A stretch of DNA of 64,000 nucleotides from Bacteroidales bacterium (GTDB taxonomy: Bacteria; Bacteroidota; Bacteroidia; Bacteroidales; VadinHA17): NCBI GenBank assembly GCA_003141525.1, contig PLML01000193.1:719-64718 (forward strand), read 5' to 3'. The position numbers and the translations under genes are program-made. The notes under the pieces are model-generated. The model saw nothing but the letters and a program-made list of their open reading frames with translations, searched no databases and had not been told where the DNA came from. Of the stretch, positions 9,413 to 48,006 are shown in pieces; the stretch's first letter is position 1, and each line of letters begins with the position of its first letter.

Positions 9413-9441
9413 GATTCTGATTCATGTAAAAAATCAGAATC
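9413..9441 (-). terminator. Stem-loop overlapping the stop codon of the 873-aa gene (possible weak terminator or attenuator)
   Basis: GATTCTGATT (9413-9422) pairs perfectly with AATCAGAATC (9432-9441) across a 9-nt loop. On the minus strand the hairpin is followed by TTTAATAAAAC. The gene's TGA lies inside one arm. Confidence 0.35.
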
Positions 9442-12055
9442 GTTTTGGAGTTATCACAATCAAAAAGCCCTTATTTTGCGAAATTTTCATCGATTGTAAT
9501 GATGGAAATATTTGCGCTTGTTGAAAATCTTGAATTTCGGGTAAATAAAATATATATTCTTTTTCATCATATCCTAATTTATTCCAATCCACTTTAATGT
9601 TGCAGACCTGATCAGTACTTCCCCATGCTGCCACAGAAATAATTGATTCCTTGTTACCTTTGTATAAGGTAGCTTTTACTAAATCATTGTTCACACTGAG
9701 CGGATTATTTTTTTTATCCCAAAAGCCAATCATCTCTTTCCCTATAATATCATACTGATCCCAAAATTTCCACAAAGGACATGGATTCCCTCCCCATCCT
9801 AGACGATTTGATTCACCAAATACCATTCCTTTCCATGGATTACCTTCCCCGATCATTTGTCCGGGTAACCCATAAGGTATACCTGACTGTTCTATCAGCC
9901 AATGATCAGGCATTCGACTATAGTCACGCCCCTCTCCAATCCAGGTAAGATCAATATATGGTAATAAATCCATATATACATTTAAACAGTTAGCATAACC
10001 TCCTGCTTTATTAAAAACATTCCAACTATGTAAATCAATTCTTCCATTAGGTCGATATCGATCTATAATCCTTCGGGCCCGACATAACGTCATTCTGTCA
10101 GAAGCAGCATCATCAATATATATTCCGTCCAATTCCATGTTTCTCACCATCCAATCCAAACCACTTAAATAAAAATTATTTAGTCGGCTATCCGGTGTGG
10201 TTATCACAGATATATCTGTCAACCCTTTAAATATACCTTCATTAATAACTTGACACCATGCAGGTATGTATTTTTCCTTAAGATTATCTTTACACCACGC
10301 TGGTGCGCCACTTCCATTATAAGTGCTAATATAATCGTTGCCCACACCAGGGAAAATAATTTCACTATCTAAAGAACGAAACGCCCAAAATTCAGGAATG
10401 TTTTTAGTTAATTCACGAGTAGTGTAATAAAATTTCATTCTCATATGATTCTTATGAGCGTCATTAATTAATCGCTTTAAATCAGAAATAAATTCATCTG
10501 CAAAAGGGTAATTTATGAATGGATAAACATCGCATCCATGGTGAATTGTAATAATATTTGCTCCATTTTCTTTCGCATTCTGAACTATATCTTTTGTACT
10601 GGTGCCTAAAACAGGATGGAAATATCGATCTCCAAATTGAACAGTTTTGTTGATAGGTTTAAATGGAGTGATAAGAAGTTCAAAATCGTAATGCAGGACA
10701 TCTCCTTTTTTCAATTCTCTATAACCCGAATAGGCATTAACCATCACATCATCTCCATCCTCAGTGATTTTGACTCCGCCGGATCCATGATTCCCCCATG
10801 ATGATGGTAAATTTAATGGGCCATAAGCGTAGTATATATTTACTAAAGGTCGCACATAATTCTCTCCTTTCCATTTTAGCCTCAATCCGCCATTTACCGC
10901 TCCTATCCAAAGCATATCTTGATTACTGATTGTATCCCATTTCCAATTATACGTTCCTTGGGGACGAAAACCTCCTTCAGTATTAAGGCCCATCATATAC
11001 TCGGCTTTCTCCTTTGCCATTGGAACTTCCAATCGCATATCTTTGACTATAATTGGCATTAATGAATTAACAGTCAATTTATATTCAACATGACCATCAA
11101 ACCCCAATGTTCCCTCACATTTTAATTCTACCTCGGATGAAGCGCTATTTACAACCCATGTAATTCCTGTCTTTGTTTCTTTTATAAATTTTATTTTCTC
11201 GGACTTAAACGTTATAATTTTCCCATCGTTCTTTTCTAGGATAAAATTCATAGGCTTATTGAGAATTTCTTCGCCATTTTCTCCAATAGTTTGTACCGAA
11301 GGTGTAAAATAAGTGAGTATTGACGATGGTAATCCATTTTTACCAATTGTAAATTGTCGTCCTAATAATTTGATATTATTGCTCTCCCGTACCAGTGTAG
11401 TGAAAGGTTTTGTGACAACATCCTCTATTCCTACAGTGCTATTGAGCCAATTCAGACGAGACATTCTTTTCCCTTCACTATAGCCATGATCTGCAACTTT
11501 ATCTCCGGCCACTTTTAAAATAATAGATAAAATTCTAGCCTTTCCGTTAGATACAACACTTACCTTACCCTTATAAATGCCTGACGTAGTTTTATCCAGG
11601 TTAATGCCCACCCAAAAACTATGTGCTCTTCCTTTTTGCACTATTACTTGCTTTACAAAAGGTTTGCCGTGAAAGTTAATGCCGCCGGTGTCGAAACAAG
11701 TCATTTCTTTGATCGAAATTGATTTGCCATTGTTACCTTTCAACTCTGAGAATTTAACTTGTACGTTATTTAAATTATCTATTGCCCATACTACCAACTG
11801 GTAAGTGTAATATTCCCCAGGTTTCGCGTTTAATTCAAGTTCATTTTTTGACCAATCTTTTTGAAACCAATTTACACGGAGTGAATCAAACCATTGAACA
11901 GGTTTTTCACGTACTTCAGGAAACAACACAAAAGTTTGTTCCTGATATTTTTCCCCATAGCTTCTCAAAGCATTATCGGTAGAAATATAATTTTTCTCTT
12001 GTGATAGTAATGATAGGCTGGTACATAACATTGAGGCTAATAAGATTGATTTCAT
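9434..12055 (-). CDS. Exported glycoside-hydrolase-like protein, paralog family 'D' (short member lacking the N-terminal ~170-aa module)
   Basis: 873 aa with an SPI signal ('SLLSQEKN'). It shares the family motifs 'SRLNWLNSTVGIED', 'KFYYTTRELT..EFWAFRSLDSEI', 'LDGIYIDDAASDR', 'IDLHSWN', 'TWIGEGRDY' and 'SGIPYGL' with 13882-16950, 16937-20071 and 44971-48006. Confidence 0.6.
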   Translation of the reverse strand: MKSILLASMLCTSLSLLSQEKNYISTDNALRSYGEKYQEQTFVLFPEVREKPVQWFDSLRVNWFQKDWSKNELELNAKPGEYYTYQLVVWAIDNLNNVQVKFSELKGNNGKSISIKEMTCFDTGGINFHGKPFVKQVIVQKGRAHSFWVGINLDKTTSGIYKGKVSVVSNGKARILSIILKVAGDKVADHGYSEGKRMSRLNWLNSTVGIEDVVTKPFTTLVRESNNIKLLGRQFTIGKNGLPSSILTYFTPSVQTIGENGEEILNKPMNFILEKNDGKIITFKSEKIKFIKETKTGITWVVNSASSEVELKCEGTLGFDGHVEYKLTVNSLMPIIVKDMRLEVPMAKEKAEYMMGLNTEGGFRPQGTYNWKWDTISNQDMLWIGAVNGGLRLKWKGENYVRPLVNIYYAYGPLNLPSSWGNHGSGGVKITEDGDDVMVNAYSGYRELKKGDVLHYDFELLITPFKPINKTVQFGDRYFHPVLGTSTKDIVQNAKENGANIITIHHGCDVYPFINYPFADEFISDLKRLINDAHKNHMRMKFYYTTRELTKNIPEFWAFRSLDSEIIFPGVGNDYISTYNGSGAPAWCKDNLKEKYIPAWCQVINEGIFKGLTDISVITTPDSRLNNFYLSGLDWMVRNMELDGIYIDDAASDRMTLCRARRIIDRYRPNGRIDLHSWNVFNKAGGYANCLNVYMDLLPYIDLTWIGEGRDYSRMPDHWLIEQSGIPYGLPGQMIGEGNPWKGMVFGESNRLGWGGNPCPLWKFWDQYDIIGKEMIGFWDKKNNPLSVNNDLVKATLYKGNKESIISVAAWGSTDQVCNIKVDWNKLGYDEKEYIFYLPEIQDFQQAQIFPSLQSMKISQNKGFLIVITPKRF

Positions 12056-12269
12056 AAGGGTCTCCTTAATCTTGCTACTTAAATTTCTAAACTTATTTTA
12101 TAAAACTGCACAATTTATAGTAGGTGGAAGTAGTGAATATCTGAGATTTTAGATTCATTGTCACCGATTATAATTAAAATAAACTCAAGATTTCTATTTA
12201 TTTAATTTTCCTCATAATTTAACCTCAATATCATAGAAAATTGAAAGGTATTTAGCAGGCTGCTTTAAA

Positions 12270-13598
12270 TTAGAAGTAATCACTAAAAGGTTTCTTTTCG
12301 ATGATTGCTTTAAGCCCCATCATTGGTACGGCAATTCCTGCAATGAAACCTGAAGCTCCTCCTCCATTACCATCAGCTGAAACACATTCAGGAAATCCTA
12401 ACTTTACAGAATTTTCTACCATTTCCCTGGCTATTTCTAATGCCAATTCAGGATTTTCTATCTCTATAGCAGGTAATACCCAGCCCGTACCTACTGACCA
12501 AAAACCTCCATTAATATAACTACCAACAAGTGAGCTCTCATATCTACCTAAATTCATATCATACTTTGCCGCCCACATTCTTTGCCAACCTTCAGGTTCT
12601 GCTATCTGTCGTGTTGCTCCTTTTAGGAAGATCGCTTTACGATTCTTTTCGTAATACTGACCTATTCGTTTTCTAATTTCCGGCTTTGACATCCAATATG
12701 CAAGACCATTACCCCAAACATTGATCTGACGACAATCTTTCGATCCAGCAAAATATGCTCCATGTTCCTCATCAAACAAACGATATAAGTTATCAGCAAT
12801 TTCTTTTGACAATCTTTCCCATTTATTGATTTCAGTTTTTTCTATATACCCATTAAAAAACCGTGCTCCACGTTTTAATCCAAAATGGAGCACCATACTG
12901 CTCATCAGTTCAAAACCGGTTATTGCCACCATATCATGATAGCCAAAACCTACTCGCGCATGTTGAGGATCACTATACGCCAGTCCACATGCAAACGATA
13001 TACTATCTATACCTCGCTTAAATAATAGTGCCCAATCTTCTTTTCGAGGAATAGTAGCTCCCATCTTTTCAATATAATCTATCAGTCGAATCCATGCTGC
13101 AGGTAAGTGAAGAGGCATTCGCTCTGTAGGATGTTGGGAAAAGGCATAACCTGGATGCATCATTGGCATTCCATCAGAATCTACTCTATCTGGAAACAGT
13201 TCCAAATCAACCATACTTTCTGTTAAAAATTTACTTATTTGTGTTAGTCTTTCCTTATCATATAGTCCAGACTCAACAAGCATCGGATACAAAAAATCAT
13301 CAGGCCATAACCCTCGATAAGTATTACTCACGCATGGAGAATGTATTTTAAAATTATTATCATATTCTACTTTTGACCGTTCCAAACAATCAATCAAATG
13401 CTTTCTCAAAATCTCATATAGCTCTTTATAAGCCGAAGTATAAATACCACGATAAGAAATAATAGAGCTATTTGTTTTATCAATTAATATTTGTGAATTC
13501 GATATATGATCAGCTTGATTTTCGAAAGTATCAATTGGTAACATAAGTCCTGTTGCCCCTAATGTACCTGTCAATGATAGAAAATGCCGTCTTTTCAT
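12270..13598 (-). CDS. Tat-exported protein of unknown function; possible (alpha/alpha)6-barrel glycosidase-like protein (family 'A', member 2)
   Basis: 442 aa. The twin-arginine leader is 'MKRRHFLSLTGTLGATGLMLP'. Its motif order parallels the 457-aa protein at 7979-9352. Confidence 0.45.
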   Translation of the reverse strand: MKRRHFLSLTGTLGATGLMLPIDTFENQADHISNSQILIDKTNSSIISYRGIYTSAYKELYEILRKHLIDCLERSKVEYDNNFKIHSPCVSNTYRGLWPDDFLYPMLVESGLYDKERLTQISKFLTESMVDLELFPDRVDSDGMPMMHPGYAFSQHPTERMPLHLPAAWIRLIDYIEKMGATIPRKEDWALLFKRGIDSISFACGLAYSDPQHARVGFGYHDMVAITGFELMSSMVLHFGLKRGARFFNGYIEKTEINKWERLSKEIADNLYRLFDEEHGAYFAGSKDCRQINVWGNGLAYWMSKPEIRKRIGQYYEKNRKAIFLKGATRQIAEPEGWQRMWAAKYDMNLGRYESSLVGSYINGGFWSVGTGWVLPAIEIENPELALEIAREMVENSVKLGFPECVSADGNGGGASGFIAGIAVPMMGLKAIIEKKPFSDYF

Positions 13599-13881: not shown

Positions 13882-16800
13882 CTACTCTTCTTCCACCACT
13901 AACAACCAACCTTTTTTAGACTCTATTGTAATAGATTCATCTCGAGCAAATGCCTTTTCAGGTTGAAAATTCTTAATTGCGGGTGCAGTAATCTTGATAT
14001 TGTCAGGATTAATACCTGCTCTGGCAAAATCTATTTTAAGTTTAACAGAAGTCGTTTCTTTTGCCCAGCTTGCTATACTAATGAGCATCTTTTTATTCTT
14101 CAAATAGGCTGTAGCCAATACATCTTTATTTGAAGTAGTGACAATAGGTTTTTCATCCCAATAACCTATCATCTTTGCATCAGCAATGCCAAAACTATCC
14201 CATGCCTTCCAAATTTCAGTGGGATCAGAGACTCCTTTATCAGTATAGGGCAAACGAGAAGTCATTCCATATATCATCCCCCTCCATGGGTTTTCACCTC
14301 CTGCTTGTGCCAACGGTAGCATATCGCCCATCAGTCCAAACGGAATTCCCGACACCTCTACCAGCCAGTTGGCTGGTGACATCTCATTATAATTATATAA
14401 TTCGCCAAACCATATTTTATCCAAGTACGGGAAAAATTCAGTATATTGCAAAACAGGAGGACCTCCATAAGTTCCTGCATGCAGATCAATAATGCAATTT
14501 GGTTTCACTTCATTCATTACTTTACGCATACGCATAATCATTTCTCTTCCATAAGCAGCTGCATCGAGATACAGCCCATCTATACCCATCTCCTTTACCA
14601 ACCACTTTAATCCTTCCACGTAATAATTATACCAACGTGTGTTGCCGGGAGATGTCATAATAGCAGCATCGGCTCCTTTTAGGTCACCGAGATACTGATA
14701 CCATTGGGGAATATAGTCATCTACCAAATGCTCTCTTAACCAAGGATATCCCCCACCAGGACCGCTAGCAAGAATCTCGTCACCAAGACTTCTCAATGCC
14801 CATATTTCGGTTGTAAAATTTGAAAGCTCTCTTACTGTGTAGTAAATTTTTACTTTCATCCCTTTGCTATGCCAACGGTCAACAAAGTCCTTCAATTCCT
14901 TTACGGCTATAAAGGGATAATTAATGTTCGGATTGTACTTATTAGCTTGATGCACATTGATAACTTTAACACCATTTGCCACAGCCTTTTCTGAAGGTTC
15001 AGGAGCAAGCGGATCATGAAAATAACGATCAGTAAACTGACTGTATGTATTGAGTTTTTTTACTGGTGTTATCACAAATGCACATTCAAACTTAATGCTT
15101 TCTCCTTTTTTTATAGTCCTAGGACCACTATATACTATTGCATCCCGCTGATTTTCAGAAGTTCTGATTCTGAATCCACCTTTACCATTATTGTCCCAAC
15201 TTGGAGGTGGAGCTGTATTGTAGAACATAAGCAATGGACCACTATACGGTGCCCCCCTGAGCTCGCAGCTTATACCACCATTTGTATTTCCAAGCCAAAA
15301 AGAATCATGTAATATGTCCCATTTACCTTCATGCGTTTCGGGGGTATCTGTCCCTGGAAGTCCCATTCCAATTATATAGCGCGCCATGTTTTTCTTAACG
15401 GGTATTACTAATTGGATATCGGTAACGTTTATATCCTTGTTTGCTTCAATATCAAATGTGTATTTTAGATATCCATCACACCATGCCTCAGAATGAGTCG
15501 TTAGCTTAATCAAATCATTTGTCTGCTCTATCTTTTTGGATAAAGAGCTGGCTGTCTTATTTGTTTCAATTATTTTATTTGTATTGAACTGTATATTGCC
15601 TTTCCCAGTTTTTATTTCAAATTGGATAGGTGCAGCCAAAATCTCTTTGCTCCATACTTTTATTGACGATGGTAGTCCACTTTCGGAAAATGAAAGTTCC
15701 TTCCCCGATAATACTACAACTTTTTCGTCTGGTACTTTTATGAACTCATAAGGAGGAATGGGATTGTCATCTATTCCTGCCGTTGAGTTCAGCCAACGTA
15801 AACGCGAATACCTCCAGGTCTCACCATCACCCCTGTCCACCAATATTTTATCCAATACTTTAATATTTACCTCTATGTATTTTTGTCCACAGTTTTTCGT
15901 ATTTATCGTCATTTTTCCGCTATATTTTCCCGGTGGAATATTTTGCGGTATATCTACCCCGATCCACAAGGTTTGAACTTTGTTTTTTTCAACATTTACC
16001 ATTTTAGAAAAAGGTTTGCCAAAGGGATCAATACCCCCTGTATTGAAACAAGTCATAGAAGTAACAGGTAAGGTATATTTACTACCTTTCAGAGATGTAA
16101 ATTCTACTCTTACATTTTCAATATCTTCCATTGCCCAGAGTCCTACCTGAAAAGCATAATATTCATTTTTATACGCCGTTCCCTCAAAGACATCGGTCAT
16201 TGGATTCAGGATCCATTTCTGCGGGATATTATCCAACATCCGGATGGGATATTTTCTGTCTTCCGGAAAGAGCAGAAATTTGCTGCCGCTAAGAGAGGAT
16301 TTCAGAACTTCTTTCTCCTTCTCAGTGGCAATCACCTCCATAGGATAAAAAGAATCGAATTCCGTGCGGGCCTGAATTTCGACAGGTTTTGCTTCAATAT
16401 AGTTAGATTTTAGATTTTTTTCGATATTAATTTTCTTTAACCAATGTTTATCCGGTGGAGGCTCTTGTGGCAGGTAATTTCTGCTGTACCCCCCCCATCC
16501 TCCTTGTAACTCATAAGGAAGATAATAAAAGTAATATTTACCAGCACTTACTGGTCCAAATAAAAGATTGCATCGCTCATTGTTTACATCTATGCGGTAT
16601 ATGTTTTGAACTGTATCGTTTGCCCGCGCATTTAAGATAATAAATCGATGTCTATCTACATCCTTGTCGTGACGTCGCCACTCCAGATTTAGATGGGCCA
16701 CCTCTCCATCCGATGGGATATTAATTACAGCACGGTGATTACCAATAGATGAAGGAAATTCTGTAGGCATCGAATCGGGTCTGATTTTTTTATGAACCCT

Positions 16801-16950
16801 ACCCATTATTTGCTCCCAAGGTTGGTTCGCAACTGAATAACGAAGTGTTTTTTTCTGATTACAAGCAAATAAAAAAATAAATATCACTCCTGCTAATAAA
16901 ATGTTTTTCATGATGTTATTTTGAATTATCGTTTTTCTATTCTTTAACAA
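13882..16950 (-). CDS. Exported ~1000-aa glycoside-hydrolase-like lipoprotein, paralog family 'D'
   Basis: 1022 aa. The likely true start is the Met at 16911, giving 'MKNILLAGVIFIFLFAC' with a lipobox Cys. That start removes the 14-nt overlap with the upstream gene. The N-terminal module is 'GNHRAVINIP...LEWRRHD...GKYYFYYLPYE'. Family motifs are 'SRLRWLNSTAGIDD', 'KIYYTVRELSNFTTEIWALRSLGDEI', 'DGLYLDAAAYGRE', 'IDLHAGT', 'IWFGELYNY' and 'SGIPFGL'. By eye it is about 70% identical to 44971-48006 in the N-terminal region. Confidence 0.6.
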   Translation of the reverse strand: MLKNRKTIIQNNIMKNILLAGVIFIFLFACNQKKTLRYSVANQPWEQIMGRVHKKIRPDSMPTEFPSSIGNHRAVINIPSDGEVAHLNLEWRRHDKDVDRHRFIILNARANDTVQNIYRIDVNNERCNLLFGPVSAGKYYFYYLPYELQGGWGGYSRNYLPQEPPPDKHWLKKINIEKNLKSNYIEAKPVEIQARTEFDSFYPMEVIATEKEKEVLKSSLSGSKFLLFPEDRKYPIRMLDNIPQKWILNPMTDVFEGTAYKNEYYAFQVGLWAMEDIENVRVEFTSLKGSKYTLPVTSMTCFNTGGIDPFGKPFSKMVNVEKNKVQTLWIGVDIPQNIPPGKYSGKMTINTKNCGQKYIEVNIKVLDKILVDRGDGETWRYSRLRWLNSTAGIDDNPIPPYEFIKVPDEKVVVLSGKELSFSESGLPSSIKVWSKEILAAPIQFEIKTGKGNIQFNTNKIIETNKTASSLSKKIEQTNDLIKLTTHSEAWCDGYLKYTFDIEANKDINVTDIQLVIPVKKNMARYIIGMGLPGTDTPETHEGKWDILHDSFWLGNTNGGISCELRGAPYSGPLLMFYNTAPPPSWDNNGKGGFRIRTSENQRDAIVYSGPRTIKKGESIKFECAFVITPVKKLNTYSQFTDRYFHDPLAPEPSEKAVANGVKVINVHQANKYNPNINYPFIAVKELKDFVDRWHSKGMKVKIYYTVRELSNFTTEIWALRSLGDEILASGPGGGYPWLREHLVDDYIPQWYQYLGDLKGADAAIMTSPGNTRWYNYYVEGLKWLVKEMGIDGLYLDAAAYGREMIMRMRKVMNEVKPNCIIDLHAGTYGGPPVLQYTEFFPYLDKIWFGELYNYNEMSPANWLVEVSGIPFGLMGDMLPLAQAGGENPWRGMIYGMTSRLPYTDKGVSDPTEIWKAWDSFGIADAKMIGYWDEKPIVTTSNKDVLATAYLKNKKMLISIASWAKETTSVKLKIDFARAGINPDNIKITAPAIKNFQPEKAFARDESITIESKKGWLLVVEEE

Positions 16951-19900
16951 TTAATATTAAACCTTTTGATGCCGGGATTATTAAATTATTTATTTCCACT
17001 TCTGATTGCGTTTGTAATTTGTCAATTTCAGGAGCCTCAATTTTTACTGTAGATGAATTTAATCCCAACTTATTCCAATCAATATCTAATTTTACAGATT
17101 GATCTTTATCTGCCCAATTCCCCATTGCTATCATTACTTCACCTTTTTTGATATATGTACTTGCTAATACATTTTTGTTATTAGTTTTAACAGCAATTTC
17201 AGGATCCCAATAACCCACATATCTTGAATCGGATATACCAAAATAGTCCCATAATTTCCATATGTTTGTGGGATCACAACCTTGCCATCCTAACCTGGAA
17301 GTCATTCCATAAACCATTCCTCGATAAACATTGCCACAACCAGCCAGCATTTCACCATATAGTCCAAAAGGAATTCCCGAAATTTCAATGAGCCAATAAT
17401 CCGGATTTGTATTATAATCAAACCCTTCACCAAACCATAGGCTATTTATATAGGGGAGCAACTCCATATTTTGATTCGCAGGACTATTCATACCGAAATA
17501 TTTATTAAATGTATTACCTGCATGAAAATCAAACAAGCCACCATCTGATGTTCTATCCATAGTCTTACGCAGCCTTTTCATAAATTCTCTATCGTAACCT
17601 ATGCCATCTAAATACAAACCACTCACTCCTAAATTTTTTATTAACCAACTAAATCCTTCTACATAATAATTGAGCCATCGGGATAATGTTTGTGTCCTTA
17701 TAGACATATCCCAATCTACACCTGTTCCGGACGGAAGAGGACTATGCCATTTCCCATCATATCTTGACCGAAGATGTTCATACAGCCACGGATGTCCCAT
17801 TGTACCCATCGCATTAAAGTCCAAATCAATATTTTCTTTAATAGAAAAATCAGGCATCTTAATAACATTATCACGGGTATAAACTTCATCACCGAGTGAT
17901 CGTAAAGCCCATAATTCAGGAAGATATACAGACAATTCTCTTACGGTATAATACAATTTTGTTTTAATATCATGACCTTTAGCATAGCTTATCACTTCTT
18001 TTAACAAATCCGGAGTAAGAAATGGATAATTAATAAAAGGATTGTATATATTACCCTGATGTAAAATCATAACTTTTGCTTTATTATTATTAATTACATC
18101 TTTAATGGCCGCCTCATCCGCATTAGAATCATGATAATAACGTTGTTCCCAATGCTTGTCATCCAAGGTCTTAAAAGGAGTAATAGCCAAACCAAAATTC
18201 AAAACCATCGTATCTCCGCTCATCATTGTCTTATTTCCTATATAAGCGGTTATCACAACTTCATTGCCAAATGATTTAATATTACATCCTCCTTTACCAT
18301 CATTACTCCAATCTCTGTAAGGTCCCGTTTTCTTTAAGTCAAACATTGGCCAGTCAGGAGTCAAGTTTTTTAATTTCAATTGCATTCCTGCATTAACTGC
18401 ACCCATCCAAACCATATTGCTTGTAATATTTGTATCCCATTTCCAATCTAAGTTTAGATTTTCAGGTGTTCGTCCTCCTTGTCTTCCCATTCCCATTAAA
18501 TATGTTGCTGCAGATTTTTTGTAGGGAAGAATAAGTTTTACATCGTCTAATGTTACGTTCTTTTTAGCAACTATTTTTGTTTCATAATTAACATAACCAT
18601 CACATTCCATCTTGGCTTTAATATAAACAGCTATATTTGCAGAATATAATGAGGTTTCCCAGGCAACAGTACCACTGGTCCTTAAGGTAATTACCGGGTC
18701 TTTTGCCTTCAAATCAATTACTTTATCTCCTTGCAATACATTAAGCCGTATTTCTTCAGATATTATCTCTTTTTCAGGTCCATTAACATCATGATTACTC
18801 GCTGAAAAAGAACTTGTTATCCTAGCTGGAAGTCCATATTTATTAAATGTTAATTTTCTTCCAAATATGGATACCGTATTTTTCTCTAACTTTACAGGAG
18901 TAAACGGTGAAAAAACCTCATTATCCAATCCCATATCTGAATCTAGCCAATTTAAACGAGACTGATTTTGGGGTGTATTATAACCTCTATTTTCCGCTAT
19001 TCTTTCACCAACTTTTATCGTTACATCTATATTATATTCTTTTGTGCCTTGTGCTGATACAATTACCTTACCCTTATAAATTCCTGCAGGTTGATTCTCT
19101 TTTATATCTGTTATAATCCACATTGCCTGTACTTCACCTTTTGGCACATTCACATTTTTAGTAAAGCTTTTACCTAAATGATCACGGCCTCCTGTATTAA
19201 TACATTTAAATGCAGTTGAGGGTATAGAAGACCCCTGGTCTGTCTTTAAATTAGAAAAGAATATTTGCACTCCTCTTAACTCCTTAAATGGGGCAAAAAC
19301 CCCTAATTGCCATACATAAATTTCATTCTTAAGCGCTGTCCCTTCAAAGGGATAATTCGCTCCTTTTTTATACCACCTGTAAGGAATTGTTTCAAACATT
19401 CGAATAGGAAATTTTCTATCTTCCGGAAATATCAAAAACTCTTTATCCCTGTTTTTTTCCAAAATCTCTGATAACTCTTTCTGAGTAACAGGTATTTCCA
19501 TTGGATAAAAACTATGAAAATCATTTTTACTCTCAAATCGAATAGTCTTTGCTATTCCTTGGATAATACTGTTTGCAATGCTGTTTTTCCAGTTAACATC
19601 AAATGTCTCTGCCGGTTTTACATAGTCAGGGTAAGGAAACCACCACATTCGACTGTCATTAACCTTTCCAGGCATGTAATACAAATAATATTTCCCTTCT
19701 CCCGAAGTTGGTTCAAATACGATTTCTGCATAATCTTTATTTAACTCTGTACTATAAATATTGTTTACTCGTTGGTCAGTAAATGCATCTATTAATATTA
19801 GAGTTTTTTCTTTAACATTATCCAATCTACGCCATGGAACAACTAAGCTAACTGCATTTGCTGCCTTTTCGACATAAATAACAGCCCTGTGGTTCCCAAG

Positions 19901-25786: not shown

Positions 25787-25807
25787 GACGAGAATATTAT
25801 TATATGT

Positions 25808-29092: not shown

Positions 29093-29104
29093 ATTTCTTT
29101 TTTT

Positions 29105-31918: not shown

Positions 31919-31978
31919 CTTTTCTATTTATCTGATTAATATATTATATCCATATTTTCCTGCTTTAACACATATGGT

Positions 31979-34579: not shown

Positions 34580-34599
34580 AGCTTAAATTTTTAAATTAT

Positions 34600-37428: not shown

Positions 37429-37452
37429 ATTTGTCTTTTTAGCAAAAATTAG

Positions 37453-39624: not shown

Positions 39625-39680
39625 TTGTATTAATTGATAACTTCAACAGGTTTGAGGAGTTCATTTTTAGAGAAAGGTAT

Positions 39681-42536
39681 TCATTGTTTTATATCATATA
39701 CAGGAGCTGTAACTGATTTTGAGTTCCACGCCTTGGCATAAACCTGCATAACCCCGATTTCCTCCGATTTATCTTTGTCCGGTATAAACATATAAACATC
39801 ACGCTTTTCACCTGCCAAAAGCGTAAAATAATTATCCTCAATATAAACTGTCTTGCTGTCCTCACAGTCCGTATCCAGCTTCACAAATAACCCAGGCGCC
39901 TTACCCGTGTTCCGTACTATCACTCTATATGTCTTTGTCTTCTTACCGTACCATTCCTGAATTTTTTCTAGCTTCACCGATATAGCCAGGTTCGTCTGCG
40001 TGGCAGTCAGCAGATTATTCATATACCCCTTTGGTATCGACTGCTCCTTATCAGCCCCAATGACCCCAAATGTATAAGTATGACCTGATAGTCTTTCTCC
40101 CTCTCTGTTATATAACTCAGTCACTATGAGAATCACCTTTCCTTCCAATTCCTTTGAAGGCACAAAAGTCACATCACCAACCCTGGTATTATCCTCCGCC
40201 ACTACATCGACCGCCCACTCCTGCTGACCCATAACCCTTCCATCCAGATCTACAACTTTCGCTTTAACTATAGACTTCTTCAATGCTTCCTTTCGTTCAC
40301 TGGTGACAAACAGCTTCATTCTCAATTGTTCCCCGCTACGTACATAAAGTGCCCCATACTCTGCACTCACATCAACCTCCGCGTAAGAATCCCGTGCATA
40401 ATAATAAGCCATCTTAGGCTGCCCATAATACTCCACAACACACCCATGTGCTGCATTCGGCCATGGCTCATTAAATGTCCAGGAAACGCAGGCGCTGCGA
40501 TGCCACTTATGCCTGCGATGTGCCTGGTTCGCGTATCTCAGCCCTTCTGCCTGGGCAAATTGACTTACCTGTACTTCCGTTCCCAGATCCTTCAGCTCGT
40601 TAAACAAAGGGCGATATATCTGCGACATCAACCACCACGACGTTTTCGGTGCATGATGATGATTCCAGTAAACGTTCTCACCGACAGGCCACAAACTGTC
40701 GGCAGGTATTATCCGCTTAAGTGTCTTAACCGATGATAAGCCGCTTGCCCCATATTCTGTCCATTCGATCGGGTCTGCGGGGCCGACATGAATATTTTGG
40801 CCTGTGTTGTATATGGCATACGCGTTGGGCCAGCCCTCGCCCTCTCCTCCGGGCGGGAAACTGAAATACCACGGGGCATGACGTTGAGCATCACAAACAG
40901 GGTCTGCTCTGTAAAACGGTCTCGTAGGGTCCATTTCCCTGCAAATATCCTCGAATTGGGCTACCTGGCTGCTGTTTTCACGCGTAGAATACAACTCATT
41001 ACCGAAAACATATCGCATAACACAGGGATGATTGATCAGAAGCCCCATTACCTGTCTCTGCTGCTGCGCACTGTTTGCCAATACCTCAGGTGTTTCAAGT
41101 GGTCGTGCTCCGGCGTTAGGCATCTCCTGCCATATCATTATTCCATACTCATCGCACAGATCATAAAATATCTGCTTTTCAATTAGTCCGCCTCCCCATA
41201 TCCGAAATACATTATAATTGCCCATTGCCGCCATCCTGATCAGATGCTCATATTCGCTCTTCCCGCTCCTGCCGGGCATCATATCAGTTGGCAAAAGATT
41301 TCCTCCTCTTGCAAATATTCTTCTTCCATTTATCGAAATCAGGTATTTCTGCTCCTTATCCTCGGGTAGCTCTTTTACTCCCGTTGTCCACTCAGCCTTC
41401 AACGCCCAATCATCGAAAACTTCAGAATCTTTCCCGCCCTCGTACCAATAATCCTGGTATTTCCTATTCTCTGATTTCGGGTTTGCCAGGATCTCCAACT
41501 CTCGAATCCCAAACCGAATTGACGCCTCATCCAGTACATCCCCCGTTCCCCTATCCTTCACAGTTACTTTCATTTCATACAGATTCTGTTCCCCGTATCC
41601 ATTAGGCCACCATAATTTAGGGCCATTAATGTCGACCGGAAACTCCAGAAGCTGCTTATCACCATAAATCCTCGTGTTATAACTCGCCGTCGCCTCTTGG
41701 GCCTCGGCAGTCACACATCGAACCTGGTAAATTATCTTGCAATCGTGAAATCCTTTCGAGCAAACTTTCACTTTCGACTTTATCCTTGCCTTATTATAAG
41801 GGTTTTTTGTCTCAGGGAATACCAGCACCTCACCGATAGATACTCCACTGCTCCCGACAAGCCGCACATCCTGCCATATCCCCACCGACCACAACGGTAT
41901 CCCGAAATCCCATCCTGTAACCACTCTGCTCTTCCAGAATTTCATCGTTCTGGTTATCTCATTATGAAAATCCTGGTGCTTCCCCGACGACAGTAACCTG
42001 ACTATATTCTTTGGAGCCGCTTCAATCAGTACAGTTAAAACATTCTCATCCCCGACTTTAACCAATTCCGTAACATCAAACTCAAAAGGCGTGAACTGTC
42101 CCTCGTGTGTACCCAAAAACTTCCGGTTAAGCCAAACCTTCGTCGCGTAATCTACTGCCTCAAACTTCAAGCGTACCTCTTTCCCTTTCCACTCTTCTCC
42201 AAGCTTAAAACTTTTCCGGTACCACCATTCCTTCGCAGGTACCTCAAACGCATTTAGGCTGTTTCGTCCCACATAGATATCCGCCAGTTTTCCCGCCCGC
42301 TCAAGATCCCAATGTACATCTCCCGGAACTTTAGCCGGAATGGCTTGAGTAAATGAATACTCATCTTTATAAAATCCTTCCTTCTCGCCTTGTTCGGGAG
42401 AAGCTGATACTATCTTCCAATCATCTCCACTTAAATTATAGGTTAATCTACCACCTCCCTGGGGAAAAGAGGTCACTGGGATTGTAATAATTAACAAATA
42501 CAGGAAACTGTTTTTAATGAGTTGAATTTTATTCAT
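39681..42536 (-). CDS. GH2-family glycosidase (beta-mannosidase-like subgroup), GC-rich paralog
   Basis: 951 aa with an SPI signal ('SFPQGG'). Motifs are 'VPGDVHWDLERA', 'KFEAVDYATKVWLNRKFLGTHEGQFTPFEFDVT', 'TGWDFG', 'WWPNGYGEQNLY', 'RIWGGG', 'VFGNELY' and 'WTEYGASGLSS'. Confidence 0.8.
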   Translation of the reverse strand: MNKIQLIKNSFLYLLIITIPVTSFPQGGGRLTYNLSGDDWKIVSASPEQGEKEGFYKDEYSFTQAIPAKVPGDVHWDLERAGKLADIYVGRNSLNAFEVPAKEWWYRKSFKLGEEWKGKEVRLKFEAVDYATKVWLNRKFLGTHEGQFTPFEFDVTELVKVGDENVLTVLIEAAPKNIVRLLSSGKHQDFHNEITRTMKFWKSRVVTGWDFGIPLWSVGIWQDVRLVGSSGVSIGEVLVFPETKNPYNKARIKSKVKVCSKGFHDCKIIYQVRCVTAEAQEATASYNTRIYGDKQLLEFPVDINGPKLWWPNGYGEQNLYEMKVTVKDRGTGDVLDEASIRFGIRELEILANPKSENRKYQDYWYEGGKDSEVFDDWALKAEWTTGVKELPEDKEQKYLISINGRRIFARGGNLLPTDMMPGRSGKSEYEHLIRMAAMGNYNVFRIWGGGLIEKQIFYDLCDEYGIMIWQEMPNAGARPLETPEVLANSAQQQRQVMGLLINHPCVMRYVFGNELYSTRENSSQVAQFEDICREMDPTRPFYRADPVCDAQRHAPWYFSFPPGGEGEGWPNAYAIYNTGQNIHVGPADPIEWTEYGASGLSSVKTLKRIIPADSLWPVGENVYWNHHHAPKTSWWLMSQIYRPLFNELKDLGTEVQVSQFAQAEGLRYANQAHRRHKWHRSACVSWTFNEPWPNAAHGCVVEYYGQPKMAYYYARDSYAEVDVSAEYGALYVRSGEQLRMKLFVTSERKEALKKSIVKAKVVDLDGRVMGQQEWAVDVVAEDNTRVGDVTFVPSKELEGKVILIVTELYNREGERLSGHTYTFGVIGADKEQSIPKGYMNNLLTATQTNLAISVKLEKIQEWYGKKTKTYRVIVRNTGKAPGLFVKLDTDCEDSKTVYIEDNYFTLLAGEKRDVYMFIPDKDKSEEIGVMQVYAKAWNSKSVTAPVYDIKQ

Positions 42537-42606
42537 TTCGTAATTTTATCATTTATAAAATAGTCAGAATTTCCAAAAGGTTATTTAATGATGACGCGGT
42601 AATGAA

Positions 42607-43824
42607 TTAGCTATTTTCTTTTTGAATTAATCTTATTTTATGCCCTTTCTTTGCATAAAACAATAAGTATAGATAAATGGGGACACAAATCAAATAAGCC
42701 ATTTGCATCGGATTACTACCAATATGTAAATCTGAAAGCAATCCAAACAAAAGCGGGATAACAGCTCCTCCGGCAATTCCCATTACTAATAAGGCAGCTC
42801 CATCATTTGTAAATTCTCCTAAGTCAGCTATTGCCAAGGGCCAAATAGTGGGCCAAATCAGTGAATTTCCCAAGCCTAACAATGCTACAAAATAAATAGC
42901 ATAGGTAAGAGGTAATAGACAAATAAAGGCGGAACTTATTATACCTATACAAGCACATATCTGTAAAGCAGCTGTTTGGGTCAGTTTTTTAGGAATAAAC
43001 AAAACTCCACATATATATCCTATTATCGTTGCAATAACTGTATAAGAACCATATTGCTCAGGATTTTCAAGCCCAATATTTGAAGCAAAATCAACTATAG
43101 AAGCCAAGGCAATTACTTCAACTCCTGAAAATAGGAATAGACCAGCAACTCCCAATAAAAGATGTGGAAATTGAAAAATGCTTGTTTTTAAGTTTGTTCC
43201 GTGTATGGAAGACGAATTTTCTTCATTGGCTATTTTGATTTCAGGAAGAGGTAAAAAGGGAGATAAAACACCAATTATAACAAATATTACTGTCATCAAC
43301 ATAAATGGGAAAGTTACATCAGACAAACTAACATTATTTAAATTAAGAAATAAACTAAGAAAAATTGGAGCTGCTGCCCATGCCAGTTTATTAAGTATTC
43401 CCATGATACTAATGCGTTTTGCAGCACTTTCTATTGGGCCTATAATAGTAATATATGGATTTACCGCAGCTTGCAATAAAGTATTTCCAGCGCCACTTAT
43501 AAATGAAGCTAATAAAAACAAGGGAAAACTTTGATATCTGGCTGATGGAATAAATAAAAAGAAGCCAACTGCAAAAATGAGGAAAGAAATCATCATGCTT
43601 CTTTTATAGCCTATTTTTTTAATAATTTTTCCTGAAGGATAACCACATACAACAAAAGCTGTATAAGCAGATGCAAGGATCAAGTAGGCTTGTGCAGAAG
43701 AAATACTAAATGCCTTTTTGAAAAATGGAATCAAAAAAGAATTAATTCCTAATGCAAAACCTATGAAAAAAAATTGGACGCCAATAATTAAAATCGGTAT
43801 TGCAAGATTATTTTTAGCAGTCAT
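42607..43824 (-). CDS. MFS sugar transporter (FucP / glucose-galactose GluP type)
   Basis: 405 aa with about 12 TM segments. 'FFFIGFALGINSFLIPFFKKAF', 'GKIIKKIGYKRSM' and 'GAGNTLLQAAVNPYITIIGPIESAAKR' match the conserved blocks of FucP/GluP-family permeases as I recall them. Confidence 0.75.
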   Translation of the reverse strand: MTAKNNLAIPILIIGVQFFFIGFALGINSFLIPFFKKAFSISSAQAYLILASAYTAFVVCGYPSGKIIKKIGYKRSMMISFLIFAVGFFLFIPSARYQSFPLFLLASFISGAGNTLLQAAVNPYITIIGPIESAAKRISIMGILNKLAWAAAPIFLSLFLNLNNVSLSDVTFPFMLMTVIFVIIGVLSPFLPLPEIKIANEENSSSIHGTNLKTSIFQFPHLLLGVAGLFLFSGVEVIALASIVDFASNIGLENPEQYGSYTVIATIIGYICGVLFIPKKLTQTAALQICACIGIISSAFICLLPLTYAIYFVALLGLGNSLIWPTIWPLAIADLGEFTNDGAALLVMGIAGGAVIPLLFGLLSDLHIGSNPMQMAYLICVPIYLYLLFYAKKGHKIRLIQKENS

Positions 43825-43835
43825 TTTGGGATATC

Positions 43836-44915
43836 TTAATAATTTCTTGATTGAGTAATTAAACCTAAACGATATAATTCTTCATGAATGAACAGACAAT
43901 TATTGATGTCATATTCATTTTCCAAGTGATAAGCGATCTTCAAAGGTCCATTATTATTTTCTTCCAAAATTCTATACAACCATTCTTTTACTTTTTCTTT
44001 TGAACTACCTTTCATCAAAATTTCAACAGCAGGAAATACATTGATTTCTATATTATTTCCTAGAATTTCTCTGATTTTTTTTACAGAAGTACCCGAACCA
44101 GTATCAATAACTCCCAGGTTTCTGATTTTAGCAAATGACTCTATTAAATAATCCGATTTGCCACAGCTATGAAGACGAATTTTACCTAATTTATCACCTA
44201 ATGTACTTATGTAAGGTACTATAAATTCTTCATACAATTCACGCGATAGCATTGTCCCTGAACATTCCCCGATATGAACGGATGTGACAGGCAAATTTGC
44301 TAATTTTGAAAAATATTTAATAATAGCAATATATACATCAGCAATCCATTGATTAATCGAATGTGCCAATTGTGGATTAACAAGTAGAAGAGTAATTATA
44401 TTTTCTCCCACTAGTTTGAGCGATGTAGTAATAATTCCATGAATTGTAGCTCTTCCCGAAAGATCCCAGAAAAAAGGAGGAATAACTGTCAAATCTGGTC
44501 GTGATTTTTGAATTTTAACAACTTCTTTGGTTAAATCTTTTATGAATTGGTGATTAAGCAATTTGTCAACTGGTGGTAATTCAAATGCATCTTTAATGTC
44601 TTTTAAAGGATATCCTGTCACATCAGAATCTTTATCTGCAAAGAATGAAAATTTAGCACCTAACATGACTGCTATTATCATATTCGGTTGTATAGCACCT
44701 ACCTGCACCAAATTTTCATTATAGAACTCTGCCTGAACTAAGTTATCTTCCATATTGTAAAGAGCATAGTTTGGAAATTTCTCTCGAAGAAATTTATTAA
44801 TTTCTCTATCTCTTTCAAGGCGAAATAATGGATTTAAATAATACTGACTATCAAATGTAAAACTCCCAGCTTGATGTAGCCATCCTTTTGAAACACTAGC
44901 TTGTATCTTTATCAT
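43836..44915 (-). CDS. Cytoplasmic uroporphyrinogen-decarboxylase (URO-D)-superfamily-like protein; function unknown
   Basis: 359 aa with no signal peptide. The N-terminal 'KGWLHQAGSF' resembles the URO-D signature 'PxWxMRQAGR'. The size and the later 'RLHSCGKSDYLIE' block fit the URO-D/MtaA TIM-barrel family. The stop is 11 nt from the MFS start. Assignment is tentative. Confidence 0.4.
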   Translation of the reverse strand: MIKIQASVSKGWLHQAGSFTFDSQYYLNPLFRLERDREINKFLREKFPNYALYNMEDNLVQAEFYNENLVQVGAIQPNMIIAVMLGAKFSFFADKDSDVTGYPLKDIKDAFELPPVDKLLNHQFIKDLTKEVVKIQKSRPDLTVIPPFFWDLSGRATIHGIITTSLKLVGENIITLLLVNPQLAHSINQWIADVYIAIIKYFSKLANLPVTSVHIGECSGTMLSRELYEEFIVPYISTLGDKLGKIRLHSCGKSDYLIESFAKIRNLGVIDTGSGTSVKKIREILGNNIEINVFPAVEILMKGSSKEKVKEWLYRILEENNNGPLKIAYHLENEYDINNCLFIHEELYRLGLITQSRNY

Positions 44916-44970
44916 GGCTTTAAATTTTGATATTTATTTTTAAGTTCATTTATTTATTATGTAAAAGTAC

Positions 44971-47900
44971 TTACTGCTGCTCCACAATCAATAACCACCC
45001 TTTTGTTGGCTCAATTGAAATCTTATCAAATATTCCAAAAGTTTTTTCTGGTTGAAATTTATCTATAAATGGGGCGGTTATTTTAACTTTATTTGGATTC
45101 AGTCCTGCCCGTGTGAAATCGATAGCAAGCGTAACTTCTGCTTTTTCTTTAGCCCAACTTGCAACACTTATAAGCATTCTCTTGTCTTTCAAATATGCTG
45201 TTGCTAACACATCTTTATTGGATGTAGTAACTACAGGTTTATCTTCCCAGTATCCGACCATCTGAGCATCAGCTATTCCAAAGCTATCCCATACCTTCCA
45301 AATTTCACTCGGACTACAAATTACGCCTTCTGTTGACCAGGGCAAGCGATTTGTCATTCCATAGACCATTCCACGCCATGGATTTCCTCCGGCGTGTAGC
45401 ATATCTCCCGTTAATCCAAATGGAATACCTGAAACTTCCACTAACCAATTTGCCGGAGGCATTGCATTATAATTAAAACTTTCTCCAAACCATAATTTAT
45501 CAATGTAAGGGAAGAACTCGGTATATTGTGTAGCCGGACCAATTGAAAATGCTGTATTGGAATGCAAATCAATCAAACAGCCAGGCTTTGTTTCGTTCAT
45601 TACTTTTCGAATACGTTTTAACATCTCTCTATCAAAAGAAACATCGTCAAGGTACAAACCATCTATATCAACATTTTTCACCAACCATTTCAATCCTTCA
45701 ATATAGTAATTGAACCAGCGAGAAGTACCTATAGAGGTTAATACTGATGCATCTACCAAGGTTGAATCAAGGTACTGATACCATTGTGGTGTATAATTAT
45801 CTACTAAATGCTCGCGCAACCAGGGATAGCCGCCACCATCGCCGCCTGAAAGAACTTCATCACCCAAACTGCGTAATGCCCAAATTTCTGTAACAAAATT
45901 GGTCAGCTCACGGATGGTATAATAAATTTTTACTTTCAAATCATTGCTATGCCACCGCCGAACAAAGTCTTTCATTGCATCGACCTCAACAAAGGGATAG
46001 TTTAAATGAGGATTGTACTTATTTGCGTGATGTAAATTTACAATTTTAATGCCGGCCAACAAATCTTCCGGACGAGGATCAGGACTTAATCCATCGTGAA
46101 AATAGCGATTTGTAAATTGACCTTTTGTATCTATTATTTTTACGGGAGTGATAATAAAAGCACATTCAAATTTAAGTTTTTCTCCCTGCTTTAGATCCCG
46201 CTCACCTGAATAAACTATGGCATTACGTTGCTCTCCGAAAGTTCTAATTTTGAAACCTCCTTTGCTATCGTTGTCCCAAGATTTAGGAAATTCTGGATGA
46301 TAAAGATTTAAGAGCGGTCCCATATATGATGCCCCTCGCAATTCGCAATACAAACCACCTTTGGTATTACCAATCCAAAGGGCATCGTGAGGGCCTTTCC
46401 ATTTTGCGTCATGATTTTCGGGCGTTTCGGTTCCAGGAAGTCCCATGCCCATCATATAATTGGAAAGGTCTTTTCTAAATGGTATATCCAATTGAATATC
46501 TGAAAAATCAATATCCTTTTTTGCCTCAATGTTAAAAGTATATTTTAGCCATCCATCAGATTCTACCTCTAAATGTGTAATTAAATTGATAAAATCATTA
46601 GATTGATAAATTTCTTTAATAAAGATCCCTGAGGCTTCTTTGAGAACTTTTGTTTCTTTCGTTTCGAAATGTAAAGGTTCATTATTTTTAAGAATGGAAT
46701 ACTTAATGGAAGCCGACAAAATCTCATTACCATATACATTTATTGAAGCAGGTAACCCGTCTTTTGCCAATTCCAGGTATTTGCCTGTAAGCAGCATTTT
46801 ATTTCCATTCAAAAGTTCTATTGGCTGATAGGGCGCTACATTTTCATCGTCAATTCCGGCAGTAGAGTTTAGCCAACGTAAGCGTGAATGTCGCCAGGTT
46901 TCGCTATCGCCTCTATCAGCCAATACATTATTTGTTACTTTTATTTCAAGTTCAATTTCTTTTTGTCCGGCATTTTTTGTTATAACAACAAGCTTCCCCT
47001 TGTAAGTATCGGCGGGAATATTCTGAGGAATATCAATACCTATCCACAATGGTAGTACCTTGGTTGTTGCAATATTTACTATTTTGGTAAAGGGCTTTCC
47101 CAAAGGGCTTATGCCATTTGTGTTAAAACAGGTAAAAGCAGATTTCTGCAAGGTGAATTTCGTGCTTTTTAAATCGTTGAATTCAATTTTTACATCCTCA
47201 ATATTATTAATAGCCCACAGTCCGACCTGGAAAGCATAATATTCGTTTTTATCGACAAGTCCCGAAAATTTATTGCTATTAGGCGTAATAATCCATCGTT
47301 GCGGAATATTGTCGAGCATTCGAATGGGAAATTTTCTATCTTCAGGAAAGAGTAAAAATTTATCCCTTGTGTTTCTGGCTAAATTCTCTTTTTCTTTTTT
47401 TGTAGCAATAATCTCCATCGGATAGAATGAGTCAAATGCTGTACGTGCTTGCATCTCAATGCATTCTGCTTCAATAAATTGCTTATTATTTTTGTTGATT
47501 AGGTTATTTTTCACCCATGCTTCGTCAGGCGGTTTTTCTTGCGGCAAATAATTTCGTCCATAGAATCCCCATCCTCCCTGAAGTTCGAATGGGAGGTAAT
47601 AGAAATAATACTTACCTGCATTAACTGGTCCAAACAGAAGTTCGCAAAACTCGTTATTTACATCTTTGCGATAGATATTTTTTACTGTATCACTTGTATT
47701 GGCATTGATGATAATGAATTTATGTTTATCCACCCCCTTATCATGACGTCGCCACTCAAGTAAAAGTCGTGCAACCTCTCCCGATTTAGGGATCTCAATT
47801 ACTGCTCGATGATTGCCAACAGATAAAGGAAAGAATGTAGGCATTGAATCTTTTCTTATTTTTGAAGGGTATTTCCCCATAATATCAGCCCAGGGTGTTT

Positions 47901-48006
47901 TCGGTATAGTATAAGTTATTTGTGCATTTGATAGGAATGCAGAAAACAATGGGAGAAATGTGGCCGATAGCAAGATTTTTTTTCTCATGAGGGTTTTATT
48001 TTTCAT
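44971..48006 (-). CDS. Exported ~1000-aa glycoside-hydrolase-like protein, paralog family 'D'
   Basis: 1011 aa. The start may be the Met at 47988 ('MRKKILLSATFLPLFSAFLSNAQ'), which removes the 11-nt overlap with the upstream gene. Motifs are 'GNHRAVIEIP...LEWRRHD...GKYYFYYLPFE', 'SRLRWLNSTAGIDD', 'KIYYTIRELTNFVTEIWALRSLGDEV', 'DGLYLDDVSFDRE', 'IDLHSNT', 'LWFGESFNY' and 'SGIPFGL'. Confidence 0.6.
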   Translation of the reverse strand: MKNKTLMRKKILLSATFLPLFSAFLSNAQITYTIPKTPWADIMGKYPSKIRKDSMPTFFPLSVGNHRAVIEIPKSGEVARLLLEWRRHDKGVDKHKFIIINANTSDTVKNIYRKDVNNEFCELLFGPVNAGKYYFYYLPFELQGGWGFYGRNYLPQEKPPDEAWVKNNLINKNNKQFIEAECIEMQARTAFDSFYPMEIIATKKEKENLARNTRDKFLLFPEDRKFPIRMLDNIPQRWIITPNSNKFSGLVDKNEYYAFQVGLWAINNIEDVKIEFNDLKSTKFTLQKSAFTCFNTNGISPLGKPFTKIVNIATTKVLPLWIGIDIPQNIPADTYKGKLVVITKNAGQKEIELEIKVTNNVLADRGDSETWRHSRLRWLNSTAGIDDENVAPYQPIELLNGNKMLLTGKYLELAKDGLPASINVYGNEILSASIKYSILKNNEPLHFETKETKVLKEASGIFIKEIYQSNDFINLITHLEVESDGWLKYTFNIEAKKDIDFSDIQLDIPFRKDLSNYMMGMGLPGTETPENHDAKWKGPHDALWIGNTKGGLYCELRGASYMGPLLNLYHPEFPKSWDNDSKGGFKIRTFGEQRNAIVYSGERDLKQGEKLKFECAFIITPVKIIDTKGQFTNRYFHDGLSPDPRPEDLLAGIKIVNLHHANKYNPHLNYPFVEVDAMKDFVRRWHSNDLKVKIYYTIRELTNFVTEIWALRSLGDEVLSGGDGGGYPWLREHLVDNYTPQWYQYLDSTLVDASVLTSIGTSRWFNYYIEGLKWLVKNVDIDGLYLDDVSFDREMLKRIRKVMNETKPGCLIDLHSNTAFSIGPATQYTEFFPYIDKLWFGESFNYNAMPPANWLVEVSGIPFGLTGDMLHAGGNPWRGMVYGMTNRLPWSTEGVICSPSEIWKVWDSFGIADAQMVGYWEDKPVVTTSNKDVLATAYLKDKRMLISVASWAKEKAEVTLAIDFTRAGLNPNKVKITAPFIDKFQPEKTFGIFDKISIEPTKGWLLIVEQQ

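Follow-up and report, generated by a model that had tools for sequence, protein, structure and literature searches.

Four exported PF19543 (DUF6067) paralogues in a Bacteroidales polysaccharide utilisation locus probably carry a catalytic barrel of GH66/GH13/GH36 type rather than of GH123 type

We analysed a 64,000-nucleotide stretch of a Bacteroidales bacterium (VadinHA17; GenBank assembly GCA_003141525.1, contig PLML01000193.1, positions 719 to 64,718 of the forward strand; hereafter the window), which is a large polysaccharide utilisation locus (PUL) and encodes four related proteins, D1 to D4, of 873 to 1044 amino acids (aa). All four belong to the Pfam family PF19543 and are not substrate-assisted N-acetylhexosaminidases of the type of glycoside hydrolase (GH) family 123, from which PF19543 takes its present name. 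The reading that we favour as a whole, and hold to be probable, is that they are exported paralogues with a (beta/alpha)8 barrel of GH66/GH13/GH36 type, in which an invariant aspartate and an invariant glutamate (D787 and E842 in D4) would cleave an alpha linkage by a retaining mechanism.

The PF19543 profile, a hidden Markov model of 969 positions with a gathering score of 22 bits, matches the four proteins over their full length at 896 to 1225 bits (Table 1) and covers positions ~2-969 in D2-D4; judged by these scores, their homology is far beyond chance. A scan of the four proteins against NCBIfam gave no match. The original prediction, made from the letters alone, had described four paralogous open reading frames (ORFs) sharing a set of motifs, and a four-way alignment recovers all of these at the coordinates of Table 1: SRL(R/N)WL(N/D)S, YYTxREL...WA(L/F)RSL, G(L/I)Y(L/I)D, D(L/F)H, W(F/I)GE and SGIP(F/Y)GL. 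Identities range from 33 to 62% across all four copies, and those to D4 are 62%, 39% and 35%. The alignment also bears out the additional N-terminal module of ~170 aa (GNHRAV...WRRxD...GKYYxYYxP) that had been noted in three copies and found missing from D1. Both forms are widespread, with the module present in ~111 of 154 family sequences (about 72%) and absent from ~43, and on its own the module matches only PF19543 (positions 5-156) in a Pfam scan.

Export, which had likewise been proposed, fits the N-termini of the D proteins, which are hydrophobic and signal-peptide-like when read by eye; D2, with a lipobox-type motif (LFAC), is probably a lipoprotein. The likely start of D2 is M14 at 16911, where the public gene call for an identical protein starts, and the public call for a protein identical to D4 starts at M7 (47988). 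When these downstream starts are used, the apparent overlaps with the upstream genes vanish from what is a long run of minus-strand genes.

Over residues 28-200, D2 and D4 share 68% identity, close to the 70% estimated by eye; overall they share 61-62%, and they lie 28.0 kb apart. The best relatives of D1 and D3 elsewhere share 39-47% identity with them, against 33-38% within the window, and the nearest representatives of D1 are also short forms. As the top match of D3 (47%) is found outside the window, the D genes are, by sequence comparison, old paralogues, among which only D2 and D4 form a younger, relatively close pair. A recent duplication as the source of all four copies was considered and rejected, given that D1 and D3 are closer to proteins of other genomes.

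The overall layout had been likened to GH123/DUF4091/DUF6067-type proteins. The DUF6067 part of this likeness extends over the full length of the proteins, whereas the GH123/DUF4091 part comes down to one common N-terminal sandwich. No match to PF13320 (GH123_cat, formerly DUF4091) was found in any of the four D proteins at E<=0.01, whereas the positive control, the first 399 aa of the GH123 enzyme NgaDssm, matched PF13320 at E 1.3e-21 as well as PF22680, and matched PF19543 only at profile positions 255-307. PF22680, which describes the N-terminal beta-sandwich, matches the D proteins at 25-45 bits. The family profile in turn matches BvGH123 (5l7r/5l7v, E 1.5e-6), NgaDssm and NgaCa over ~55 residues, at D4 ~300-350. 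In Foldseek searches with full-length D4, GH123 structures align over 166-191 columns, corresponding to the N-terminal sandwich only, and the 50 best matches of the barrel modelled alone include no GH123 chain. The consecutive Asp-Glu (DE) motif, which is 94% conserved in DUF4091 proteins (PMC11087588), is not conserved here, where the Asp of YLD is followed by D, A, G and D in D1 to D4. The suspicion that the four proteins are not all GH123-type enzymes can thus be extended, as none of them has either the PF13320 match or the motif.

The D proteins are predicted to consist of five domains: an optional N-terminal beta module, a GH123-N-like sandwich, a large beta-supersandwich (~403-620 in D4), a (beta/alpha)8 barrel in the C-terminal half and a C-terminal beta-sandwich (915-1010; other boundaries in Table 1). 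In the D4 model, which was built with AlphaFold2 on a 38-sequence alignment (predicted local distance difference test, pLDDT, 88.9; predicted template modelling score, pTM, 0.87), a signal helix precedes these domains and a short helix carrying SRLRWLNS lies between the second and the third. The barrel was also modelled alone (pLDDT 83.8, pTM 0.86). The first match of full-length D4 in the Protein Data Bank (PDB) is the GH36 alpha-galactosaminidase FpGalNase (E 3e-16, 738 columns), followed by GH97, GH101, GH31, GH36, GH13 and GH66 structures. For the barrel alone, the top matches are GH13 amylases, GH66 dextranases and cycloisomaltooligosaccharide glucanotransferase (CITase), GH36 enzymes, PelA and the GH168 fucanase.

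Weak matches to sequence profiles recur in the barrel. PF13199 (GH66; gathering score 23.7 bits) gave no match above gathering; its best E was 0.0015, it matched 8 of the 25 barrel sequences, and those inspected scored 11-14 bits. These and the sub-threshold GHL6 and DUF6259 matches end at or span the Asp of YLD. No Melibiase, Glyco_hydro_31 or GH97 Pfam match was found in the D proteins, an hhalign comparison of the barrel profile with the GH31 protein of the window gave no signal, and a phmmer search of D4 against the PDB returned solely spurious gp41 matches to a Gly-rich loop. Taken together with the models, the barrel is probably of GH66/GH13/GH36 type and not of GH123 type.

Conservation was counted across 154 diverse family sequences (D4 numbering throughout). 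W378, N669, R763, N766, D787, H815, E842 and the SGIP motif are invariant in the four copies and conserved in 95-99% of these sequences. Both carboxylates that had been singled out for such a check are retained in all four copies, the Asp of YLD (D787) being found in 150 of 151 sequences and the Glu of WFGE (E842) in 148 of 151. H815 is found in 149 of 151, R763, N766 and N669 in 150 each, and W378 and W729 in about 147-152. Both models place the end of strand beta4 exactly at D787 and that of beta6 exactly at E842, with D813 and H815 on beta5. The conserved residues lie at the C-terminal strand ends of the barrel, the usual catalytic face.

GH27/31/36 and GH66 enzymes combine a carboxylate nucleophile on beta4 with an acid/base on beta6. 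The positions of D787 and E842 would fit this pattern, and we infer that the D proteins most likely act as retaining, double-displacement glycosidases or transglycosidases, with D787 as the putative nucleophile and E842 as the putative general acid/base. The lining of the sugar pocket would comprise His815, Arg763, Asn766, Trp729 and the INYP loop. Every close fold relative acts on an alpha-type (axial) glycosidic linkage, and by analogy the D proteins probably cleave one too.

The residue after D787, whose D/A/G/D series across the copies was predicted correctly, had been taken for the expected second member of a catalytic pair. This does not hold, because the barrel is not GH123/GH20/GH84-like, and the residue varies family-wide (G 77, or 50%; D 66, or 43%; E 4; A 1) as well as among 124 close homologues (D 105, A 16, G 3). 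With Gly in half of the family and Asp in 43%, it is, on the alignments, an ordinary variable, non-catalytic site. The DD, DA and DG variants were also considered as active versus inactive copies, and this was rejected: none of the four proteins has lost any of the other conserved sites, and G and D alternate across the family regardless of the N-terminal module.

The same evidence bears on the possibility that D1 and D4, with their Asp-Asp, are GH123/GH84/GH20-type substrate-assisted beta-N-acetylhexosaminidases, and that D2 and D3, with Ala and Gly, are diverged or inactive. YLDD does resemble the GH84-type Asp-Asp pair at a barrel strand end, the N-terminal sandwich is homologous to that of GH123, and a weakly GH20b-like protein is encoded nearby. 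Set against this are the PF13320 and Foldseek results given above, the Gly that follows the YLD Asp in half of the family, an E842 that is invariant in the DD and DG sets alike, and D2, which has Ala yet shares 62% identity with D4 and keeps every other conserved site. We regard this as the least probable of the explanations considered, and a very improbable one.

A less remote, though still unlikely, alternative keeps the barrel and the beta4 Asp and changes the chemistry: the D proteins could be transglycosylases or cyclising enzymes, like the GH66 CITase or the GH31 cycloalternan-forming enzymes, or GH13-like enzymes that have their acid/base elsewhere and in which E842 acts as a transition-state stabiliser. 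CITase (3wnk-3wno), cycloalternan-forming enzymes (5i0d, 4kwu) and GH13 amylases are all among the top structural matches, and sequence cannot tell hydrolysis from transfer. The acid/base of GH13 sits on beta5, and the beta5 Asp of the D family, D813, is retained in just 109 of 151 sequences as opposed to 148 of 151 for the beta6 E842, which argues against a GH13-like arrangement; the exo-glycosidases and SusC/D proteins of the PUL, for their part, fit catabolic hydrolysis.

Residue conservation speaks against a third explanation, in which the D proteins are glycan-binding proteins or pseudo-enzymes that capture the PUL substrate through a dead barrel and beta-sandwiches. In its favour, none of the family members has a known activity, several domains of the D4 model are beta-sandwiches resembling carbohydrate-binding modules, and the lipoprotein-type signal of D2 is as in surface glycan-binding proteins. 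However, carboxylates, His, Arg, Asn and Trp are near-invariant at the barrel strand ends across ~150 representatives and the four copies. Active sites typically show conservation of this kind, which pseudo-enzymes tend to lose. A binding role for the D proteins strikes us as improbable.

Several observations weigh against a retaining alpha-glycosidase with D787 and E842 as its catalytic residues. The Foldseek TM-scores of the barrel are just 0.45-0.59, with a high root-mean-square deviation, and the GH66 and GHL6 sequence matches stay below the Pfam gathering thresholds. The barrel profile found nothing relevant among PDB sequences at E<=10. GH13, also a top match, has its acid/base on beta5, where D813 is just 72% conserved. 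No PF19543 member with a measured activity, nor any characterised member, was found in the literature searched for DUF6067, PF19543, IPR045711 and GH123-like proteins, and gene context alone cannot give the substrate.

PF19543 is a large family, often with several copies per PUL. A profile search of 1.84 billion representatives gave 4903 clusters (50% identity) at E<=1e-3, of which 1024 remain at E<=1e-30, and in a genome scan at least 526 species genomes contained relatives. Carriers include Bacteroidota (marine, soil and gut), Verrucomicrobiota, Kiritimatiellae, Planctomycetota, Armatimonadota, Acidobacteriota, Gemmatimonadales, Calditrichota, Eubacteriales and others, and the best relatives in the genome scan of the window, which comes from a metagenome (ERZ19980153), are uncultured Bacteroidales/Bacteroidia. 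The proteins are labelled "DUF6067 family protein" or "glycoside hydrolase domain-containing protein" in their sources. The four D proteins are ordinary members of a catalogued, misleadingly named family, as expected in a large Bacteroidia PUL, and not an anomaly.

The former DUF6067 is now named "GH123_N" in Pfam (InterPro IPR045711), a name that reflects one common N-terminal sandwich and not a common catalytic domain, and that invites annotation as beta-N-acetylgalactosaminidase. CAZyOGH takes PF19543 as a GH123 signature (PMC13355591). We also observed that true GH123-type enzymes exceed the 22-bit gathering score of PF19543 through ~55 residues of the N-terminal sandwich alone. The naming and its use in CAZyOGH can therefore lead to reciprocal mis-annotation. 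The catalytic-barrel result corrects the GH123 expectation and points to specific residues and substrate classes. It is about as likely as not that PF19543 is a new GH family outside CAZy, of retaining alpha-glycosidases or endo-glycanases with a GH66/GH36-like barrel and a novel activity, whose four paralogues here would represent four linkage specificities. If this were true, the target of the four would be one complex marine or host-type galactose/fucose-rich glycan, and the GH123 label in Pfam, InterPro and CAZyOGH would systematically mis-annotate thousands of genes as beta-N-acetylgalactosaminidases.

The region is a PUL because it encodes a GH29 fucosidase and a SusD/SusC-like pair (Table 1). 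In addition to the glycosidases it encodes a major facilitator superfamily (MFS) transporter, a protein with a uroporphyrinogen decarboxylase (URO-D)-like fold and several proteins without a Pfam match. Orthologue loci in other genomes resemble PULs too, and other neighbours there are GH95, GH97, GH35, GH27, GH38, GH43, GH89, GH101-like, GH110 and SusC/D proteins; among 79 immediate neighbours of ~45 orthologues, GH95 (9), GH35 (7) and GH110 (6) are the commonest. These neighbouring genes point to a galactose/fucose-rich complex glycan as the substrate. A literature search on the GH110/GH95/GH35 PUL context returned a mucin review only. We suggest that the four diverged copies probably cut different linkages of one such glycan. 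The SusC/D pair of the locus would take this glycan up, and the D proteins would trim it jointly with the GH2, GH31 and GH29 enzymes.

Two further neighbours recur. A protein with DUF5107 and tetratricopeptide repeats (TPR) lies directly upstream of D4 and adjoins PF19543 genes in two unrelated genomes as well (L005 17367-20498, L006 21250-22958), which suggests a functional pairing with PF19543; no characterisation of DUF5107 was found in the literature searched. An FG-GAP/ASPIC (UnbV) repeat protein is encoded close to PF19543 genes in three loci, namely that of the window and two others (L004 21821-23114, L007 1190-3091).

The guanine-plus-cytosine content is 0.40-0.44 at 24000-44000, the GH2/GH31 block, and at 52000-56000, and 0.34-0.37 around the four PF19543 genes, a contrast that suggests a mosaic PUL whose segments differ in their histories. 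The GH2 paralogues of the block share 28-44% identity and have Ig domains of the beta-mannosidase/exo-beta-glucosaminidase type. Two of them flank the unknown 723-aa gene, so that gene-family expansion in the locus goes beyond the D family. That gene belongs to an exported-looking family of three (722, 723 and 751 aa), with identities of 64% and 30-31% and no Pfam or PDB sequence match, whose genes are interleaved with the GH2 genes; from sequence, this may be an undescribed CAZyme-like family. The 751-aa gene is also the first of three successive genes (751, 626 and 524 aa) with a near-identical N-terminal signal-anchor (MKxxNxKTxxxxGIKxL...) and little else in common; the 626-aa protein shows weak GH20b/GH67N-like N-domain matches and the 524-aa protein a weak neutral-ceramidase-like match. 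The URO-D-like protein, an unusual PUL component, is also found on the other contigs with D4. The 442-aa and 457-aa proteins flanking D1 are 23% identical over 185 aa and have no significant Pfam match; the former has a twin-arginine-like signal (MKRRHFLSLTG) and the latter is GH94-like at E 0.01.

Table 1. Positions of the PF19543 genes, their candidate catalytic residues and predicted domains, and other genes of the window
Feature	Position	Strand	Description
D1	9434-12055	minus	873 aa; PF19543 short form without N-terminal module; 896 bits, profile positions 143-968
D1 candidate nucleophile Asp648	10112-10114 (codon)	minus	motif DGIYIDD
D1 candidate acid/base Glu708	9932-9934 (codon)	minus	motif WIGE
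D2	13882-16950	minus	1022 aa as ORF, TTG start; PF19543 member, 1194 bits
D2 candidate residue Asp796	14563-14565	minus	motif DGLYLDA
D2 candidate residue Glu850	14401-14403	minus	
D3	16937-20071	minus	1044 aa; in tandem with and upstream of D2; PF19543 member, 1138 bits
D3 candidate residue Asp822	17606-17608	minus	motif SGLYLDG
D3 candidate residue Glu882	17426-17428	minus	
D4	44971-48006	minus	1011 aa as ORF; PF19543 member, 1225 bits; copy used for modelling
D4 N-terminal beta-rich module, residues ~60-190	47437-47829	minus	in D2-D4, absent from D1
D4 beta-sandwich, residues ~215-362	46921-47364	minus	sole GH123-related part, PF22680-like
D4 (beta/alpha)8 barrel, residues ~634-912	45271-46107	minus	Asp787 codon 45646-45648, Glu842 codon 45481-45483
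GH29 fucosidase and SusD/SusC-like pair	57166-63849	minus	GH29 57166-58590; SusC/D-like pair 59338-63849
Glycosidase block between D genes	25808-42536	minus	four GH2, one GH31, one unknown 723-aa gene (37453-39624)
DUF5107 and TPR protein	47996-51112	minus	1038 aa; directly upstream of D4
FG-GAP/ASPIC protein	20113-23550	minus	upstream of D3
URO-D-like protein	43836-44915	minus	with the MFS gene, immediately downstream of D4
MFS transporter	42607-43824	minus	with the URO-D-like gene, immediately downstream of D4
722-aa protein	23618-25786	minus	three-member family
723-aa protein	37453-39624	minus	three-member family
751-aa protein	51131-53386	minus	three-member family
Genes with common signal-anchor	51131-57049	minus	751, 626 and 524 aa
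442-aa protein	12270-13598	minus	flanks D1
457-aa protein	7979-9352	minus	flanks D1

The core of our conclusion is already in print for one member of the family. DSSM_1, a deep-sea metagenome protein of 1038 aa retrieved by a GH123 domain search (Sumida et al. 2024, Nat Commun, PMC11087588), has five domains, no DE motif and no DUF4091; its domain 2 is GH123 N-domain-like, the sole such domain, its domain 4 is a (beta/alpha)8 barrel like that of the GH66 CITase 3WNM, and it was set aside and listed as 'not tested, not assigned' (PMC11087588). DSSM_1 belongs to PF19543, as its 342 available residues share 37% identity with D4 (E 2e-70), and it shares GNHR(A/V)V, WRRxD, FPEDR(K/R)(F/Y)PIRM and SRLRWL(N/D)S with the D family. 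It differs in coming from another organism, and as a distant orthologue it adds no functional information.

With the GH123 enzymes BvGH123 (5l7r), CpNga123 (5fqe), NgaDssm (8k2j) and NgaCa (8k2f), the D proteins have a homologous N-terminal beta-sandwich in common, but they are devoid of PF13320 and of a conserved DE, and the D4 barrel is unlike the GH123 barrels. GHL6 (PF14871, best E 3.2e-6) and DUF6259 (PF19773, best E 1.7e-4) match barrel beta1-beta4 weakly, in all cases below the gathering thresholds, and are hypothetical glycoside-hydrolase-like barrels that are themselves uncharacterised. The GH66 dextranases and CITase (8iu8, 3vmn, 3wnk, 5axg, 5x7g) match the D4 barrel with a probability of 1.00 (E 4e-7 to 6e-6), and the recurrent weak PF13199 matches lie in barrel beta2-beta4, spanning the YLD Asp. 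In GH66 enzymes the nucleophile is an Asp on beta4 and the acid/base a Glu on beta6; D787 and E842, of the same residue types and on the same strands, are their putative equivalents. In contrast to GH66, the non-barrel domains of the D proteins are other and more numerous, and the locus in the window has no dextran-related genes.

Over the whole protein, the best matches are GH36 FpGalNase (8x1b, 9awt) and GH97, GH101, GH31 and GH36 structures, at 620-830 columns and E 3e-16 to 1e-10. These relatives share ~10% identity with D4, at TM-scores of 0.22-0.32 (query-normalised), and are without the two extra N-terminal domains of the D proteins. The barrels of GH36, GH97, GH101 and GH31 act on alpha-glycosides and have their carboxylate nucleophile on beta4, and D4 aligns to 8x1b, 9awt, 1zy9, 5i0d and 7qqh over the beta-supersandwich, barrel and C-terminal sandwich that together make up the clan GH-D architecture.

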